In this document: positions 36,444 to 43,134 of the stretch, piece by piece | How positions within the stretch are numbered: position 1 is the first letter of the stretch | Layout of the letters: each line of letters begins with the position of its first letter | Virus record (IMG/VR): IMGVR_UViG_3300045988_126989 | DNA: 43,134 bases | Source: a virus | Direction: 5' to 3' (one strand) | Program-made: the position numbers and the translations under genes | Notes under the pieces: model-generated | The model's database searches: none | Seen by the model: only the letters and a program-made list of their open reading frames with translations | Told to the model about the DNA's origin: nothing

Positions 36444-37343
36444 CTACTTTCTTTTCGCATAACTCAATGATTCAAGATTCTGCTTTTTCATTTTCCTTGT
36501 TGTACGAACATAGATTCTTGTGGTTTCTAAACTAGAATGTCCAAGAATATCAGCCAATTCAGCAATCGCATTTTCACCATTCTGCATCAAATACTGAATC
36601 GCGAACAAATGCCTAAATGCATGAGGATGTACTTTACCAAGCTTAATTCCTCTGCACTTACCAGCGATCATTTTTAGATCCCTGGATAACACACGAGCGT
36701 TTACAGGACTTTTCTTATCAGAAGAAGTAAATATATACCCTTCTTCGATTTTGTTGTCCTTGCAATATTTTAGAAGCTCTCGCCGCAAGTCTGAACGTAG
36801 AATGATTCCTCTTCCTTTTCCTTTGTTCATAACATACACATTGTCATCCGTTACTGCTTCTACAGTGAAGAACTGTAATTCACTCAATCGAATGCCCGTA
36901 TATCCAAATACCTTCATGATCTCGTATAAATCCATACGATTGATTTCACGGGCTTTTTTCAATAGCCTTTGAAATTCATTAGGTTCTAGAATATCATCCA
37001 AAGAATCGTCTTTCTGGACTCTTACGTTCTTCAATAAGTTCTTTGAATAATATTTCTTTAGCTTAAGAAAATTAAAATCATCATCAGAATCAATGATTTC
37101 GCTATATTTAATAAATTTATTAATGATCACAATATAGTTGTTTACTGTACTGATTTTATAATCATGCAGCAGTTTATCTTTAACACCAACTATATCGGAC
37201 TTTTGTATTTCACCATCAGGCAATGAGTTAACAAACAAGATAGTTACATGTTTGTATTTACGAATGGTATTCTTACTTTTCTCATCCGCTGTTTCTTCTT
37301 CTATGAACCCGTCAATCTTTGTTTGTAACTCATCCTTAGTCAT
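36444..37343 (-). CDS. Second tyrosine recombinase (XerC/D-like, 299 aa)
   Basis: ..GIRLSEL.., ..HPHAFRHLFA.., ..LGHSSLETTRIYV.. (the R...HxxR...Y catalytic pattern). Confidence 0.85.
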   Translation of the reverse strand: MTKDELQTKIDGFIEEETADEKSKNTIRKYKHVTILFVNSLPDGEIQKSDIVGVKDKLLHDYKISTVNNYIVIINKFIKYSEIIDSDDDFNFLKLKKYYSKNLLKNVRVQKDDSLDDILEPNEFQRLLKKAREINRMDLYEIMKVFGYTGIRLSELQFFTVEAVTDDNVYVMNKGKGRGIILRSDLRRELLKYCKDNKIEEGYIFTSSDKKSPVNARVLSRDLKMIAGKCRGIKLGKVHPHAFRHLFAIQYLMQNGENAIAELADILGHSSLETTRIYVRTTRKMKKQNLESLSYAKRK

Positions 37344-38710: not shown

Positions 38711-38755
38711 TTTTTAATGTATAATCACAGTGTAAGCAGTTAAGAGGTGAAAATC

Positions 38756-39160
38756 GTGGAAGAACATATAGGGTCGAGAATATATAAAATACGTAAACAT
38801 TTTAATTTGAGTATGGAAAAATTCGGTAAACAAATAGGTATCTCAAAAGGTTCAATCAATAACATTGAAAAAGGAACTACCAATCCATCAAGCCAAACCA
38901 TCAATTCTATATGTCGAGAATTTAACGTTGACTATGTATGGTTAACTGAAGGTATTGGAGACGATATGTTCATTTCTATACCTGATTCAAAAATAGATCA
39001 GCTAATCGAAGATTATGGATTAAAGCCAGAAGATAAATGGCTTGTGCGAGGATACCTTGAAGCACCGCCGGATATAAAGCAACAAGTTGCAGATTATTTG
39101 TGGTCAATTGTAAATAGAGAATTAGCTAAAAGAGAAAAAGAAAAGAGTAACAAGAAATAA
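38756..39160 (+). CDS. CI-like repressor (XRE-family HTH, no S24 peptidase domain)
   Basis: GTG 38756 lies 8 nt after AAGAGG. ..LSMEKFGKQIGISKGSINNIEKGTTNPSSQTINSICREF.. Divergent from the early promoter. Confidence 0.8.
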   Translation: MEEHIGSRIYKIRKHFNLSMEKFGKQIGISKGSINNIEKGTTNPSSQTINSICREFNVDYVWLTEGIGDDMFISIPDSKIDQLIEDYGLKPEDKWLVRGYLEAPPDIKQQVADYLWSIVNRELAKREKEKSNKK

Positions 39161-39220: not shown

Positions 39221-39907
39221 ATGGAAAAAGTAGTTTATTATTGCCCTAATTGTGGAAAAACAGTTTCTAGATTAAAAGGAAATAAAGACAATTGTTCTAA
39301 CTGCAACGGGAAAATGGTTCAAACACCGATTGATGTAGAAAAATGGAAAGAGTTGTCTGATGATGAAAAAGCAAAAATCAAGTCAGAAATATCATTTTAT
39401 GGAATCCCTGAATATAGTGGAGAACCATTAAGTGCTTTAAAACATAGATATGACTTAATTCAAATTCAGAAGATTTCCGTCACTACAACAGACATAAAAC
39501 GTGATTATGTTATTATTGGGCCTGTATTTTATCAAATAAATGATGCAGGATCAGGAAAAATGATTTTTCAAAAGCAAAAAGAATATCGTAGTGTAATAAA
39601 TTCTTTAAAAGATCAAAATCAATTAGTGAATCAAAAAGCATCAATATCTGAAGCTTTAGGTACAATATCAAGTTTTTTTGAATTAATTAATACTGGTGAT
39701 ATATCTGCATCTACAAAAGATTTATTAGGAAATGGTCACACTCAATTTGATGAAGCTTTTTTTATTTCGGTAGAAGAATTAAAAAAGCGTGCATATTATA
39801 TGGGTGCAGATGCTGTCATTGGCATGAAAGAAGAACTAAATTTAGATACTAATGGATTTCAACATTTTTATATGCAAATGTATGGAACAGCTGTTAAATT
39901 TAAATAA
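39221..39907 (+). CDS. Zinc-ribbon plus YbjQ/DUF74-like domain protein, co-transcribed with the repressor
   Basis: YYCPNCGK..CSNCNGKM at the N-terminus. C-terminus ..RAYYMGADAVIGMKEELNLD..MQMYGTAVKF resembles the YbjQ fold. GGAGG RBS. No terminator after the cI-like gene. Confidence 0.6.
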   Translation: MEKVVYYCPNCGKTVSRLKGNKDNCSNCNGKMVQTPIDVEKWKELSDDEKAKIKSEISFYGIPEYSGEPLSALKHRYDLIQIQKISVTTTDIKRDYVIIGPVFYQINDAGSGKMIFQKQKEYRSVINSLKDQNQLVNQKASISEALGTISSFFELINTGDISASTKDLLGNGHTQFDEAFFISVEELKKRAYYMGADAVIGMKEELNLDTNGFQHFYMQMYGTAVKFK

Positions 39908-39937
39908 AAGCTAGGGTAAATTCCCTAGCTTTTATTT
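39906..39937 (+). terminator. Terminator of the lysogeny operon
   Basis: AGCTAGGG-taaatt-CCCTAGCT followed by TTTATTT. Confidence 0.7.
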
Positions 39938-40054
39938 CTTCTTTGCCAACTACTTCATCAGACCAAATTTTAGCCTTCATAGCATTCAAATCTTTCCACA
40001 ATTGAGATTCTCTTTTTTCTTAAATTTAGTATCCTTCTTTTAAATTTGTGCGTA

Positions 40055-40070
40055 AATACCTATAGGTATT
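40055..40070. repeat. Perfect 16-bp palindrome
   Basis: AATACCTATAGGTATT. Confidence 0.8.
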
Positions 40071-40074
40071 AGTG

Positions 40075-40194
40075 TTATTCTTTTTTAGATGATAACAGCA
40101 GTCTTTGTGCATGATTGTACAGAATTCGCAGATCATCAACACTTAGCTTTTTCGCTAGGATAATTAATTTTGTTATCCATAAATTCCTTTTCAT
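40075..40194 (-). CDS. Small helical ORF (39 aa)
   Basis: MKRNLWITKLIILAKKLSVDDLRILYNHAQRLLLSSKKE. AAGGGA lies 7 nt upstream. A TTGACA-like promoter is at 40279-84 on the minus strand. Speculative. Confidence 0.25.
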   Translation of the reverse strand: MKRNLWITKLIILAKKLSVDDLRILYNHAQRLLLSSKKE

Positions 40195-40230
40195 AAGACC
40201 ATCCCTTTCCATTCATCTTTTATGAACAAA

Positions 40231-40248
40231 AAGGAAAACGTTTTCCTT
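40231..40248. repeat. Perfect 18-bp palindrome (operator or hairpin)
   Basis: AAGGAAAACGTTTTCCTT. Lies between the candidate minus promoter and the 39-aa ORF. Confidence 0.8.
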
Positions 40249-40368
40249 ATTCTAATATAATAAGTCTTAAATTTTATATGTCAATGCATGTTTTGTATTA
40301 AATTGTACAAATATAATACTAAAATGTGCAAGTGGTTATATATCACATTTCCAGTCTCGAATTTTTTC

Positions 40369-40377
40369 GGGGGGGGG
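40369..40377. repeat. G9 homopolymer in AT-rich intergenic DNA
   Basis: ttttttcGGGGGGGGGtag as read. Sits at the 3' end of an 18-codon ORF starting at 40324. Confidence 0.8.
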
Positions 40378-40554
40378 TAGAATTTTTAATGTACTTTTGG
40401 TTATATTATTAATGACTGATTTTGTTTTGTAAATATTTATTAATATTTTGCATTTTTAATTACTCTTTTTAAAATGCGATGTTATTATTCATGTGTACAT
40501 GATAAATATTTTAGGCTTTTTTCTATTTCCTCAAGAAAAGATTAGCAGAGAATG

Positions 40555-40600
40555 AAAAACAGATAGTGGTGTTGAGCAGCATACACTATCTGTTTTTCTT
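40555..40600. terminator. Bidirectional terminator after the int operon
   Basis: ACAGATAGTG-15nt-CACTATCTGT (10 bp), flanked by AAAAA and TTTTTCTTTTT. Confidence 0.75.
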
Positions 40601-40606
40601 TTTGTA

Positions 40607-41371
40607 TTAACTAAATAAGCCTTTCTCTTTTTCAAGATTACTGAATGGAACTGTCATTATTCCATATTCTTTAAAACCTTGTACGATATCGCTTTTTATT
40701 GTTTGAGCATCGTTTAGAATTACAATGCATTTCGCATCGTTTCTAGTCTTTTCTATATCCAACCACGCAAATACTGTAGTAGTCAGACTATCTCTAGTAG
40801 GATTGTTGATTGCCTTGCATAAGCGCTCGTTGTGATTTTTATTTCTTTGAAAGCATAGATCAAATTTTTGAGTTAGTCCTGACCTTCCAACAAATGAAAC
40901 GTTATCCGAAAAATAAATATCATTTTTAATAAAAAAGTTTGTTACATCTTCCAAGAAATATGATGTAGTACGAACTGTATTTGTTAAATACATATCGTCA
41001 ATTTGAAGCATTGTCATTGCTAATTGATGCACTTTAGACGGTAAATCCTTCTCAGATGATAAAACAGTCATTTCATTATCATCACTTAAGGAAACCCCTG
41101 ACAACATGCAAATTTGTTCAATGGTTTTTCTTCTGCTGGATTTTTTATCAATATTAATGCCTGTATCAATAAGATTATTTATAATATATCCATCATCGGA
41201 AACCAAAAACATACCGTTTTCTTTTTTATCATCCACATAGCAAACTATTGAATCTCCTATGTGATCTTCAAAAGGAAGGACTATTTCATGTGCAGTTTCT
41301 ATTTTTTTTACAGATAAATTAGATTTTAAAAAATTCAAATAATTCTTTGCAAAGTCTTTTAAATTTTCCAT
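40607..41371 (-). CDS. DUF1828/DUF1829-like two-domain protein (254 aa), function unknown
   Basis: ..VLPFEDHIGDSIVCYV..LVSDDGYIINNL.. and ..FVGRSGLTQKFDLCF..KAINNP..VILND.. recall the DUF1828+DUF1829 architecture. This is from memory and is not verified. Confidence 0.55.
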   Translation of the reverse strand: MENLKDFAKNYLNFLKSNLSVKKIETAHEIVLPFEDHIGDSIVCYVDDKKENGMFLVSDDGYIINNLIDTGINIDKKSSRRKTIEQICMLSGVSLSDDNEMTVLSSEKDLPSKVHQLAMTMLQIDDMYLTNTVRTTSYFLEDVTNFFIKNDIYFSDNVSFVGRSGLTQKFDLCFQRNKNHNERLCKAINNPTRDSLTTTVFAWLDIEKTRNDAKCIVILNDAQTIKSDIVQGFKEYGIMTVPFSNLEKEKGLFS

Positions 41372-41398
41372 AACACCATTCCTCCCTACAAAAACATT

Positions 41399-41869
41399 TT
41401 AACAAAATCTAGGCATTTCCACCACGCTATTTTTGTTTAATTCAATTACTTTAAATTTTCTTAAAAATTCTACACAATAGTTTACCAAGTTAGGATCATT
41501 GATATCAAACTTTGTTGCATATTTATCTTGGTATTGTTCGGTAAATATATGTAGATGAGTTCCATAAATAATTTCACCGTCCGGATTTTTATGAGCGTGG
41601 TTATCAGGAACTACATCCAATCGCATCAAAGGTAATTTTGCTTCTTTATCTAAGGCAAGATATGTTAGTTTATCAGGTTGTCTGTTACCTCTACGCAAAA
41701 TAATTTTGAATTTATGTTTAAATTCTTCTATAAGATAAGCTTCATATTCATTTCCTTCAGCTGGATTTGGAATTTCAATTTGTTTTTCTCGTAATCCCTT
41801 AAATCCATCTAATAATTTTCTGATTTCTTCTTCTTTCATTTCCTCGTGCACCTCTATATTAATTTTCAT
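41399..41869 (-). CDS. Hypothetical protein (156 aa) with a His-rich motif
   Basis: ..DNHAHKNPDGEIIYGTHLHIF.. Lies between int and the DUF1828-like gene, with gaps of 22 and 27 nt (operon-like). Confidence 0.55.
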   Translation of the reverse strand: MKINIEVHEEMKEEEIRKLLDGFKGLREKQIEIPNPAEGNEYEAYLIEEFKHKFKIILRRGNRQPDKLTYLALDKEAKLPLMRLDVVPDNHAHKNPDGEIIYGTHLHIFTEQYQDKYATKFDINDPNLVNYCVEFLRKFKVIELNKNSVVEMPRFC

Positions 41870-41891
41870 ATCGACATTATTTATGTCTCAT

Positions 41892-42989
41892 TTACAACAA
41901 CTTATTCATCATATCTACAATGCTCTTGTCTTTTGTATCAAACCAGTGTGCATATGTATTGTGCAATGTTTCAACTGTATCTCCTAAGCGCTTGGCTATA
42001 TCAAAATCTGAAAATCCAGCACCTGCCATGTTATTAATTAGAAATGATGCGTGTGAATGTCTAAAATCATGGATTCTTATTTTAGGCAATCCATCATCTT
42101 TTTCTTTTGCCTTATTATATGCATCATCAAATCTTCTTTGCACTGTCTGAGGTGATATTGGTTTATAGTATCCAAATACAAATTTATCTTTTGTAAAATC
42201 ATCCCATTTAGAACATTCTAGAAACCATTCTCGAAGCATTTTAGACAATGTATTAGGCATTGTAATAGTTCTATAGCTATTGTTTGTTTTTGGCGGTGTA
42301 AGCCATTTATTAGGGTCTTTCTCTTTGTATCTATATGTTTTGTTGATGTCTATCGTTTGCTTCCTAAAATCAATGTCTTTCCATTGTAGGGCCATTGCTT
42401 CACCTTTTCGCAATCCCATATAGAATAAAACAGAATAAAAACATTTCATCATTTGTTCATTTACTTCTTCAATAAACAAATCAAAATCATATTGCTGCCA
42501 TATTGTCATTTCTTCTTTTCTTTCATTCAATCTAAGATCACGTTTTACATATGTCATTGGATTGGTTGGAATGTATTCAGAAGTAACACCAAATTTATAT
42601 AGCTTATTTAAAAAGAAATAGATTCTTGATACATATGCCTTTGAATATTTTTCATCAAATTTGTTGATCAAGTTTTGCATTTGCCTTTTATCTAGAAAAT
42701 CAATATCTTTCATTTCCTTAGAAAGGACATTGTACAAATATTCATCTGATTTTAGTGTTGATTCTTTTACATACTTTTTATTATATTCTTTAAAAGCTTT
42801 ATATAGTCTGTCAAAATTCATGTCTGATGGAAGCATAAAGAAATCTTTCCTGAATTCAACCTCAGCTTTTTGTGCTTCCCATTTAGAATCAAAACCACGC
42901 TTACGATATCGCTTTATACATTTACCATCTTTATATATTTTTCCGGCAAACATATATTTTCCTGTCTTCTTATCTAATTCCACTGCCAT
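41892..42989 (-). CDS. int: Tyrosine integrase with an N-terminal arm-binding-like domain
   Basis: 365 aa. ..LRKGEAMAL.., ..IRIHDFRHSHASFL.., ..GDTVETLHNTYAHW.. Adjacent to the terminal repeat. AAGAGGG RBS. Confidence 0.9.
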   Translation of the reverse strand: MAVELDKKTGKYMFAGKIYKDGKCIKRYRKRGFDSKWEAQKAEVEFRKDFFMLPSDMNFDRLYKAFKEYNKKYVKESTLKSDEYLYNVLSKEMKDIDFLDKRQMQNLINKFDEKYSKAYVSRIYFFLNKLYKFGVTSEYIPTNPMTYVKRDLRLNERKEEMTIWQQYDFDLFIEEVNEQMMKCFYSVLFYMGLRKGEAMALQWKDIDFRKQTIDINKTYRYKEKDPNKWLTPPKTNNSYRTITMPNTLSKMLREWFLECSKWDDFTKDKFVFGYYKPISPQTVQRRFDDAYNKAKEKDDGLPKIRIHDFRHSHASFLINNMAGAGFSDFDIAKRLGDTVETLHNTYAHWFDTKDKSIVDMMNKLL

Positions 42990-43012: not shown

Positions 43013-43041
43013 ATAATATGCAAAAAAAGGGTATAATTCAA
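43013..43041 (-). promoter_or_regulatory. Candidate integrase-operon promoter
   Basis: Minus strand reads TTGAAT (43041-36), 17 nt, TATTAT (43018-13). Confidence 0.5.
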
Positions 43042-43064
43042 TATTTTAATATCAAATTATACCC
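43029..43064. repeat. 9-bp inverted repeat flanking an AT-rich 18-nt spacer (core-site or operator candidate)
   Basis: GGGTATAAT (43029-37) ... ATTATACCC (43056-64). The right arm is the first 9 nt of the terminal repeat. Confidence 0.6.
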
Positions 43065-43134
43065 CAATATACCCCAAGACAAATAAAAAAGCCTTTAAAT
43101 AAAGGCTTAAAATTCGATGGAGCAGATGAGGGGA
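43056..43134. repeat. Terminal direct repeat, copy 2
   Basis: Identical to 1-79. Confidence 0.95.

Follow-up and report, generated by a model that had tools for sequence, protein, structure and literature searches.

A two-gene cassette downstream of the integrase gene

We analysed two adjacent genes, here called gene A (orf156) and gene B (orf254), in a 43,134-nucleotide stretch of viral DNA (IMG/VR record IMGVR_UViG_3300045988_126989; "the window" hereafter means this whole stretch). The cassette is best explained as a member of PDC-M24, a candidate defence family in PADLOC, carried as prophage cargo that is expressed in the lysogen. The window looks like a complete prophage, with an amidase endolysin gene at 266-1333, a repressor gene at 38747-39160 and, at the far end, the gene for a tyrosine integrase of 365 residues, int (41892-42989, minus strand; PF00589, 3e-19; phrog_1, 6e-58). 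Genes A (41399-41869, taken as a maximal open reading frame, ORF) and B (40607-41371, 254 residues) follow on the same strand, with 22 nt between int and A and 27 nt between A and B. A preliminary description, made from the nucleotide sequence alone, had given the same positions and spacings, and its assignment of int is borne out by the PF00589 match.

The true start of gene A is probably M11, the ATG at 41839, giving a protein of 146 residues: homologues of A begin at this position, public gene calls are of 146 residues, and a GAGGTG lies at 41849-41854, 9 nt 5' of the ATG. With this start, the gap between int and A becomes 52 nt. A GGGAGG is likewise found 9 nt 5' of the ATG of gene B.

The int-A-B arrangement is closed on the minus strand by an intrinsic terminator-like hairpin at about 40554-40598 (-19.8 kcal/mol, z = -5.7), which is followed by a U run. 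The hairpin has a 10-bp core, or 15 pairs when the flanking A/U runs are included, and none of 200 shuffled sequences was as stable, confirming the strong terminator that had been proposed to follow orf254. No terminator-like hairpin was detected in the interval between int and orf156. The candidate promoter at 43041-43013, which the three genes had been proposed to share, matches at only 9 of 12 positions, and promoter-like sites were no commoner in the region than in shuffled sequences (32 found, 30.4 expected). The shared promoter therefore stays a candidate, and co-transcription of A and B with int is only plausible. An inverted repeat of 17 pairs (GGGGTATAATTTGATATT...AATATTGAATTATACCC; window 43028-43065, minus strand) overlaps the -35 region of the candidate int promoter; it may act as an operator or belong to the attachment region.

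The product of gene A matched the Pfam family DUF6978 (PF22398) at 7e-23 and 81.7 bits, against a gathering cut-off of 29.6, over profile positions 1-133 of 133. The product of gene B matched, in N- to C-terminal order, DUF1828 (PF08861; 2e-17, 63.9 bits, threshold 22) and DUF1829 (PF08862; 4e-22, 78.9 bits, threshold 22.2), in agreement with the two-domain assignment made before. In PADLOC-DB, A matched four PDC-M24A models (among them PDLC04536, 5.4e-22, the best, and PDLC04538, 2.6e-20) and B matched both PDC-M24B models, best PDLC04539 (2.1e-67 over residues 1-249). All 127 sampled relatives of A and all 53 of B matched the PDC-M24 models as well, and the PADLOC scan of these relatives gave no convincing match beyond PDC-M24. 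B also matched phrog_5059 (3e-57), and both proteins carry the PHROGs label of unknown function; NCBIfam has no model for either. A full HMMER scan of a 50%-identity library yielded 726 representatives of A, nearly all of them single-domain proteins of 140-165 residues. Pfam scans that included relatives revealed no helix-turn-helix, ribbon-helix-helix or AbrB DNA-binding domain in A or B, nor did either protein show Xis-like features.

PDC systems are "guilt-by-embedding" candidates, drawn from genes embedded in BREX, DISARM and type I restriction-modification (RM) loci, and were entered into PADLOC as candidates lacking experimental testing (bioRxiv 10.1101/2024.01.29.577857). Their origin in such loci provides an association with defence that is independent of the prophage in the window. 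The earlier proposal of a defence candidate is credible, but not that of a novel one, as both proteins match components of the catalogued PDC-M24. The locus shares with PDC-M24 both components, their adjacency and the A-then-B order, and is indistinguishable from the family except for its position downstream of int, a peculiarity of its phage group. By its profile matches it adds another PDC-M24 member and no kind of system beyond the catalogue. A literature search found no paper naming PDC-M24, and mentions of DUF6978 were incidental, once as an expressed Staphylococcus aureus protein in a proteomics study.

Linkage of A and B across genomes and in sibling phages

Loci were gathered from the A side and from the B side and every ORF was then scanned with local hidden Markov models (HMMs); 20 independent lineages had enough flanking sequence. 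In 18 of the 20, A lay directly upstream of B on the same strand, the spacing ranging between an overlap of 29 nt and a gap of 53 nt. Start/stop overlaps of the ATGA type were frequent, being seen in several lineages. The adjacency persisted where A shared only about 25% identity with its counterpart in the window, and the matrices of pairwise divergence of A and of B were correlated (Spearman 0.68, Mantel p = 2e-4; 15 lineages). The preliminary description had held that independent occurrence of the two genes would refute their pairing; we found that they co-occur almost always (18/20), and the pairing was not refuted. The linked cassette that it placed in a lysogeny-side cargo position is thus upheld.

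The pair was found in prophages, in a satellite of Streptococcus, at isolated chromosomal sites and, in S. aureus, beside lukDE; further sites lay between housekeeping genes or by a transposase, without an integrase. Such contexts are typical of mobile defence cargo. The co-directional order repressor...A-B...int was seen in Staphylococcus phages 37 and phiSP119-3, Streptococcus phages Javan642, Javan249 and MissF, Lactobacillus phage Lj965 and Latilactobacillus phage P3, and in Lactococcus petauri the pair comes after the lysin. The pair varies in its position with respect to int, and the conserved unit is therefore A-B and not an integrase operon, as had been supposed: most other lineages have the order repressor...A-B-int or no integrase. 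Judged from these arrangements, int is an upstream neighbour that lies outside the conserved module.

One of the two exceptions, an Aerococcus sp. island (L039:687-10795, GCA_026694505.1), has B without A. It carries genes for an RVT_1 reverse transcriptase and an AAA_13 ATPase upstream of B, and for PemK/MazE, an AAA ATPase and an S8 peptidase downstream, and looks like a defence island. As to how the A genes came to light, tblastn of A against phage records recovered phage 37 only, the A genes of the other records surfacing via B and the local HMMs. The scan for A loci with A alignments gave one locus, and scans of viral contigs gave near-identical siblings only. In three GenBank records an unannotated DUF6978 gene stands just 5' of the annotated DUF1828 gene: Staphylococcus phage UPMK_1, which is really a segment of a chromosomal lukDE island (L030:2614-2943), Streptococcus phage Javan249 (L031:2489-2968) and the satellite Javan357 (L034:2436-2918).

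The sibling prophages of the window are integrated next to an aminoacyl-tRNA-synthetase gene and come from human-associated metagenomes. Two of the sibling phages (L027 and L028) have a clean deletion of A (window 41385-41863) and a B cut to its first 134 residues, that is, to DUF1828 only; the truncation corresponds to window 40561-40968, with unrelated sequence thereafter. Fragments of B of 134 residues are numerous in a public protein cluster, so that this decayed form of B is common. The loss of A and the truncation of B in these siblings show that the cassette is dispensable for the phage. In a third sibling, an integrated prophage (L042:5480-6001), a 2-bp deletion (cctttg to cctg) frameshifts A before its conserved core. 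The B gene beside it is intact and identical to the cluster representative, indicating that B is tolerated without A. The reverse, an intact A beside a broken B, was not seen among the lineages and siblings examined.

Crude ratios of non-synonymous to synonymous change (pN/pS) relative to the window were lowest for int (0.02), intermediate for B (0.14) and highest for A (0.46), the comparisons being non-independent and the counts for A small. The synonymous divergence from the window was about 0.19 for int and 0.02-0.07 for A and B (window 40607-42989 against L011-L017 and L043-L046). This lower divergence suggests that an exchange or a sweep spread the cassette through this phage group at a later time than int. 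Between the terminator behind B and the repressor gene lies a variable cargo slot (window 39221-40560; about 7400-8900 in L042-L046). In the window it holds a gene on the plus strand for a protein with a zinc ribbon and a YbjQ_1 domain (39221-39907), and in the siblings MazE/PemK, an Ltp-type lipoprotein of a superinfection-exclusion family or an ORF of 260 residues. A second tyrosine recombinase candidate, an ORF of 299 residues, is found in the early region of the window (36444-37343, minus strand), and its equivalent in sibling prophages carries PF00589 (Phage_integrase).

These distributions bear on two readings in which the pair has no part in defence. It could serve the life cycle of the phage, as an accessory of integration or excision or in the control of lysogeny: the pair adjoins int in most prophage lineages, and in the window no terminator separates the two. 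We regard this as very improbable, because the gene order around int differs between lineages, the pair also occurs with no integrase or phage genes nearby, neither protein has DNA-binding helix-turn-helix or Xis-like features, and sibling phages that lack A and half of B circulate widely. Alternatively, the pair could be a plain addiction module of the toxin-antitoxin (TA) kind, stabilising mobile elements selfishly and kept because its loss kills the host, with no anti-phage role. The tight bicistron with its frequent start/stop overlaps would suit such a module, as would the occurrence of the pair on prophages, on a satellite, in islands and next to transposases; in sibling prophages, moreover, MazEF modules fill the neighbouring cargo slot. 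However, the family came to notice through genes lying inside BREX, DISARM and RM loci, the pair sits in a classical lysogeny-side defence hotspot, and the ease with which sibling phages lose the cassette argues against strong addiction. Pure addiction is therefore unlikely, and as many TA modules do both jobs it overlaps with the explanation that we favour.

Conserved site of A and fold of B

The histidine-containing stretch to which attention had been drawn in orf156, DNHAHKNPDGEIIYGTHLHIF, is present, and three of its histidines, H93, H105 and H107, are conserved in at least 98% of 128 members of the A family. Its reading as an H-x-H..H-x-H motif did not survive, as H91 is not conserved. 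The family signature is instead LxRLD-x7-HxNPDG-x6-HxHx[YF]xE, located in residues 81-111 (window 41537-41629, minus strand), a putative metal or catalytic site. Within it R83, D85, H93, N95, P96, D97, G98, H105, H107 and E111 are conserved in 78-99% of the 128 sequences; the family also keeps K24, P34 and A118, and in all nine polar residues are near-invariant. So many polar invariants speak for an active site and against a metal site of purely structural function, and the conservation pattern indicates that A is an enzyme-like protein with a putative active site.

A structural model of A was built from an alignment of five sequences (predicted local distance difference test score, pLDDT, 69; predicted template-modelling score, pTM, 0.69). 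It consists of a helix (residues 13-28), about eight antiparallel strands and a second helix (128-138). A fold search with the model gave no match in PDB or BFVD below E = 1e-3. OspA-like single-layer sheets and a "Torus domain" came up with template-modelling (TM) scores of at most 0.36 and E values of at least 0.0095, and were dismissed as meaningless. Sequence searches of PDB with the single A and B proteins and with both family profiles returned nothing below E = 0.03. Assignment of A to the HIT (HxHxH), cupin motif 1, LAS/M23 (HxxxD...HxH), HNH or metallophosphatase types was rejected because spacing or topology disagrees and no such fold was matched. A Pfam scan of 127 relatives of A gave only single weak matches, to TumE (3.7e-4) and to Phage_gp49_66 (PF13876; 4.3e-4). 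The latter is spurious, the hhalign probability against Sf6 gene 66 being 0.08%.

B was modelled with AlphaFold2 from an alignment of 53 sequences (pLDDT 93). Its C-terminal domain, DUF1829 (residues 138-245; window 40637-40960, minus strand), is modelled as helix-strand-strand-strand-helix-strand, which is the core topology of the PD-(D/E)xK, or restriction-endonuclease-like, fold. For this domain, Foldseek searches of PDB returned Cdn1 (E = 4e-4), AF1548 (1e-3; 111 columns, root-mean-square deviation 3.1), Can2 (3e-3), the endonuclease domain of the R2 retrotransposon (1e-2), PspGI (3e-2) and NucS/EndoMS (3e-2), with weaker matches to Avs4 and DdmD. Each E value is modest, but the matches agree, covering at least eight PD-(D/E)xK families at probabilities of 0.9-1.0, and we consider the fold of the modelled domain established. 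At the level of fold, the statement in the preliminary description that no nuclease signature is obvious thus needs correcting. Conserved acidic residues are found at 141 in helix 1 (E or D, 62/63 sequences), at D171 in beta-2 (61/63) and at E182 at the start of beta-3 (53/63, with D in two more), and [RK]183, [RK]186, D205 and D221 are conserved as well. The lysine of the canonical (D/E)-x-K motif was not found in B: every one of the 63 sequences has a hydrophobic residue (L, I, F or V) at position 184, with basic residues at 183 and 186 instead. B is accordingly termed here a nuclease-fold protein, nuclease activity being only putative. In the B proteins of Streptococcus phages Javan642 (L009) and Javan249 (L031), D171 is replaced by N and E182 is lost (FNF...SK instead of FDF...ER), with A still upstream. 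In these two phages the domain may have lost its activity or changed its function.

The N-terminal domain of B, DUF1828 (residues 1-130; window 40982-41371, minus strand), is an alpha+beta domain in the model, with a helix, a four-stranded antiparallel meander and further helices; P33, D36, D59 and L67 are invariant. Foldseek gave weak matches to the YbjN family (6vu7, 5frk and 4h5b; E 0.05-0.2), and relatives of B gave recurrent weak Pfam matches to Y4YQ_C, LcrG and CdiI_ImmP, the last a CdiI immunity family. The domain is thus only weakly suggested to be YbjN- or chaperone-like, and is a candidate for protein binding or sensing. The layout of B, with PD-(D/E)xK as the C-terminal of two domains, is shared with Can2, Cdn1 and Card1 of type III CRISPR systems, which are also the best Foldseek matches (E 4e-4 to 1e-2). 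However, the N-terminal domain of those proteins is a Rossmann-like CARF, whereas that of B, a helix and an antiparallel meander, is not, a CARF model being matched at 0.02 in only 1 of 53 relatives. B also differs in having neither a cyclase nor a CRISPR context, and in lacking the canonical ExK lysine.

These features raise the possibility that B is the effector of the pair, an auto-inhibited sensor-nuclease with a YbjN-like sensor and a PD-(D/E)xK domain that, once triggered, would degrade phage or host nucleic acid. A would then be no toxin but a co-factor, which might activate B, sense the trigger or act as a metal-dependent modifier. Defence and repair nucleases make up its Foldseek matches (Cdn1, Can2, Avs4, DdmD, NucS, PspGI and AF1548), and E141, D171 and E182 are conserved in 87-98% of 63 sequences. 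In the phage lineage of the window B is more constrained than A and stays intact when A is frameshifted, and in Aerococcus it stands alone in a defence island, beside the RT and AAA_13, PemK/MazE and AAA and S8 protease genes. Nevertheless, the second residue after the beta-3 acid, where the canonical lysine is expected, is hydrophobic in 63/63 sequences, the two streptococcal phages have N at D171 and no E182, and the many invariant polar residues of A look catalytic, not regulatory. Moreover, the DUF1829 protein of the HipAD system, considered below, is the non-toxic partner. On balance, we think it possible but not likely that B is the effector, and regard this as the main rival to the reading that we favour.

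Relation to TumE and DS-6, and a proposed mechanism

A bears a resemblance to TumE/DUF6516, a validated translation-inhibiting toxin with a predicted ester-hydrolase site that is neutralised by diverse unrelated partners (PMC10584680). In its published description, TumE has two helices packed against an antiparallel sheet of seven strands and no match in PDB (PMC10584680). The model of A (pLDDT 69) is in line with this description. The window protein itself did not match the Pfam family of TumE (PF20126) at E values up to 1. We aligned seven genuine DUF6516 genes from haloarchaeal plasmids. Their invariant residues include R71, Y72, D73, N74, H76, H81, H84 and E94, and run in the same order as the RxD, H, HxH and E of A. 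An extended alignment of A with DUF6516, itself not significant, keeps the two colinear for 106 columns and places R83 opposite R71, D85 opposite D73, H93 opposite H76, and H105 opposite H81. In the seven haloarchaeal plasmids (L054-L059; L053:33688-34511) DUF6516 lies upstream of, and overlaps, a gene for a "transcriptional regulator" or hypothetical protein of 133-150 residues, whereas in the original TumE paper DUF6516 is mostly downstream of its partner (PMC10584680).

A, as modelled, and TumE, as described, thus appear to have in common that they are small alpha+beta proteins of two helices on an antiparallel sheet without a match in PDB; they also have in common that they carry R-x-D, H and H-x(1-2)-H motifs in like order, and that they are encoded in a bicistron with an unrelated partner, the haloarchaeal examples being toxin-first and overlapping, as A would be. 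They differ in that A exceeds TumE in length by about 30 residues and has an additional helix at its N-terminus and an inserted NPDG hairpin, and that the partner of A is a two-domain nuclease-fold protein of 254 residues, that of TumE a small DNA-binding antitoxin. Furthermore, TumE is a toxin by experiment, whereas A is likened to it by motif order and architecture, sequence and profile similarity not being significant. We therefore treat the resemblance of A to the TumE/DUF6516 toxins as a lead.

For B, the closest precedent is DS-6/HipAD, a validated two-gene anti-phage system of a HipA-like toxin kinase and a non-toxic partner with DUF3037 and DUF1829 domains, the partner being predicted to contact both the toxin and DNA (PMC13092281). 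A literature search on HipAD found nothing beyond the DefensePredictor paper. As in PDC-M24, the DUF1829 domain of DS-6 sits in the second protein of a two-gene system. The two systems differ in the toxin (a HipA-family kinase instead of DUF6978) and in the other domain of the partner (DUF3037 instead of DUF1828), the comparison being one of domain composition.

We infer that PDC-M24 may be a TA-like abortive-infection module with A as the toxin and B as the neutraliser or sensor, a reading to which we assign a probability of roughly 0.4. A would be the toxic effector, a small enzyme of the alpha+beta type that has an R-D-H-N-D-H-H-E site and is probably a metal-dependent hydrolase, with RNA or translation as its target. 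B, which would be made from the same mRNA and is often translationally coupled to A, would hold A silent. With its chaperone-like N-terminal domain B would bind A, and with the nuclease fold of its C-terminal domain it would bind nucleic acid and might also cut it. When another phage infects the cell, the presumed A-B complex would be disturbed, and A, once freed, would stop the infected cell before that phage matures. We favour A as the toxin because of its catalytic-looking site, its resemblance to TumE and its toxin-first position as in TumE loci, and because B survives without A, with no case of the reverse seen so far. B is favoured as the neutraliser because of the DS-6/HipAD precedent, in which the DUF1829 protein is the non-toxic partner. 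Among the general features of type II TA modules, the tight bicistron is present (-29 to +53 nt), and a DNA-binding antitoxin domain is absent from A and B in Pfam scans.

Several observations weigh against the assignment of A as toxin and B as neutraliser. The second exception to the pairing is an A homologue of 201 residues that occurs without B in a conjugative element (L061:119-4724), where it overlaps the gene of a 510-residue ParB_N protein in the leading region, with ArdA, DUF3801 and TraG/VirD4 present. K24, R83 and D85 are substituted in this homologue, which retains the HxNPDG and HxH motifs. B, a large and well-folded protein, has a conserved acidic triad and experiences stronger purifying selection than A does (pN/pS 0.14 versus 0.46), features that suit an effector more than a labile antitoxin. 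The asymmetry of the natural knock-outs comes from one or two metagenomic contigs. The model of A, built from five sequences, is of medium quality only (pLDDT 69). The likeness to TumE is not significant by profile comparison (hhalign of A against the seven DUF6516 sequences, probability 0.7%, P = 0.076), and the PF20126 match, in 1 of 127 relatives of A at 3.7e-4, is within the noise of the scan. Finally, our literature search found no experiment on the PDC-M24/DUF6978 family.

A bolder version of the same reading would make DUF6978 a remote, enlarged branch of TumE, with, in place of a small DNA-binding antitoxin, a neutraliser that combines a chaperone- or immunity-like domain with a nuclease-fold domain without the canonical lysine. 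PDC-M24 would then represent a new class of toxin-first, phage-sensing TA defence, widespread in prophages, satellites and islands of Firmicutes. Here, the nuclease-fold partner might be a second effector or a sensor of phage DNA. We consider this version doubtful.

To a specialist, a PADLOC candidate in a prophage cargo slot is unsurprising. What is new here are the predicted folds of DUF1829 (nuclease-type) and DUF1828 (chaperone-like), the exact conserved site of DUF6978, a possible link to TumE, and natural knock-out variants that hint at which partner is dangerous. PDC-M24 is a widespread candidate, occurring in temperate phages of Staphylococcus, Streptococcus, Lactobacillus, Lactococcus and gut Firmicutes. 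If the proposed mechanism is not true, the cassette is one more hypothetical cargo pair; if it is true, PDC-M24 would be a new prophage-borne abortive-infection system and would extend the TumE superfamily into the biology of Gram-positive phages.

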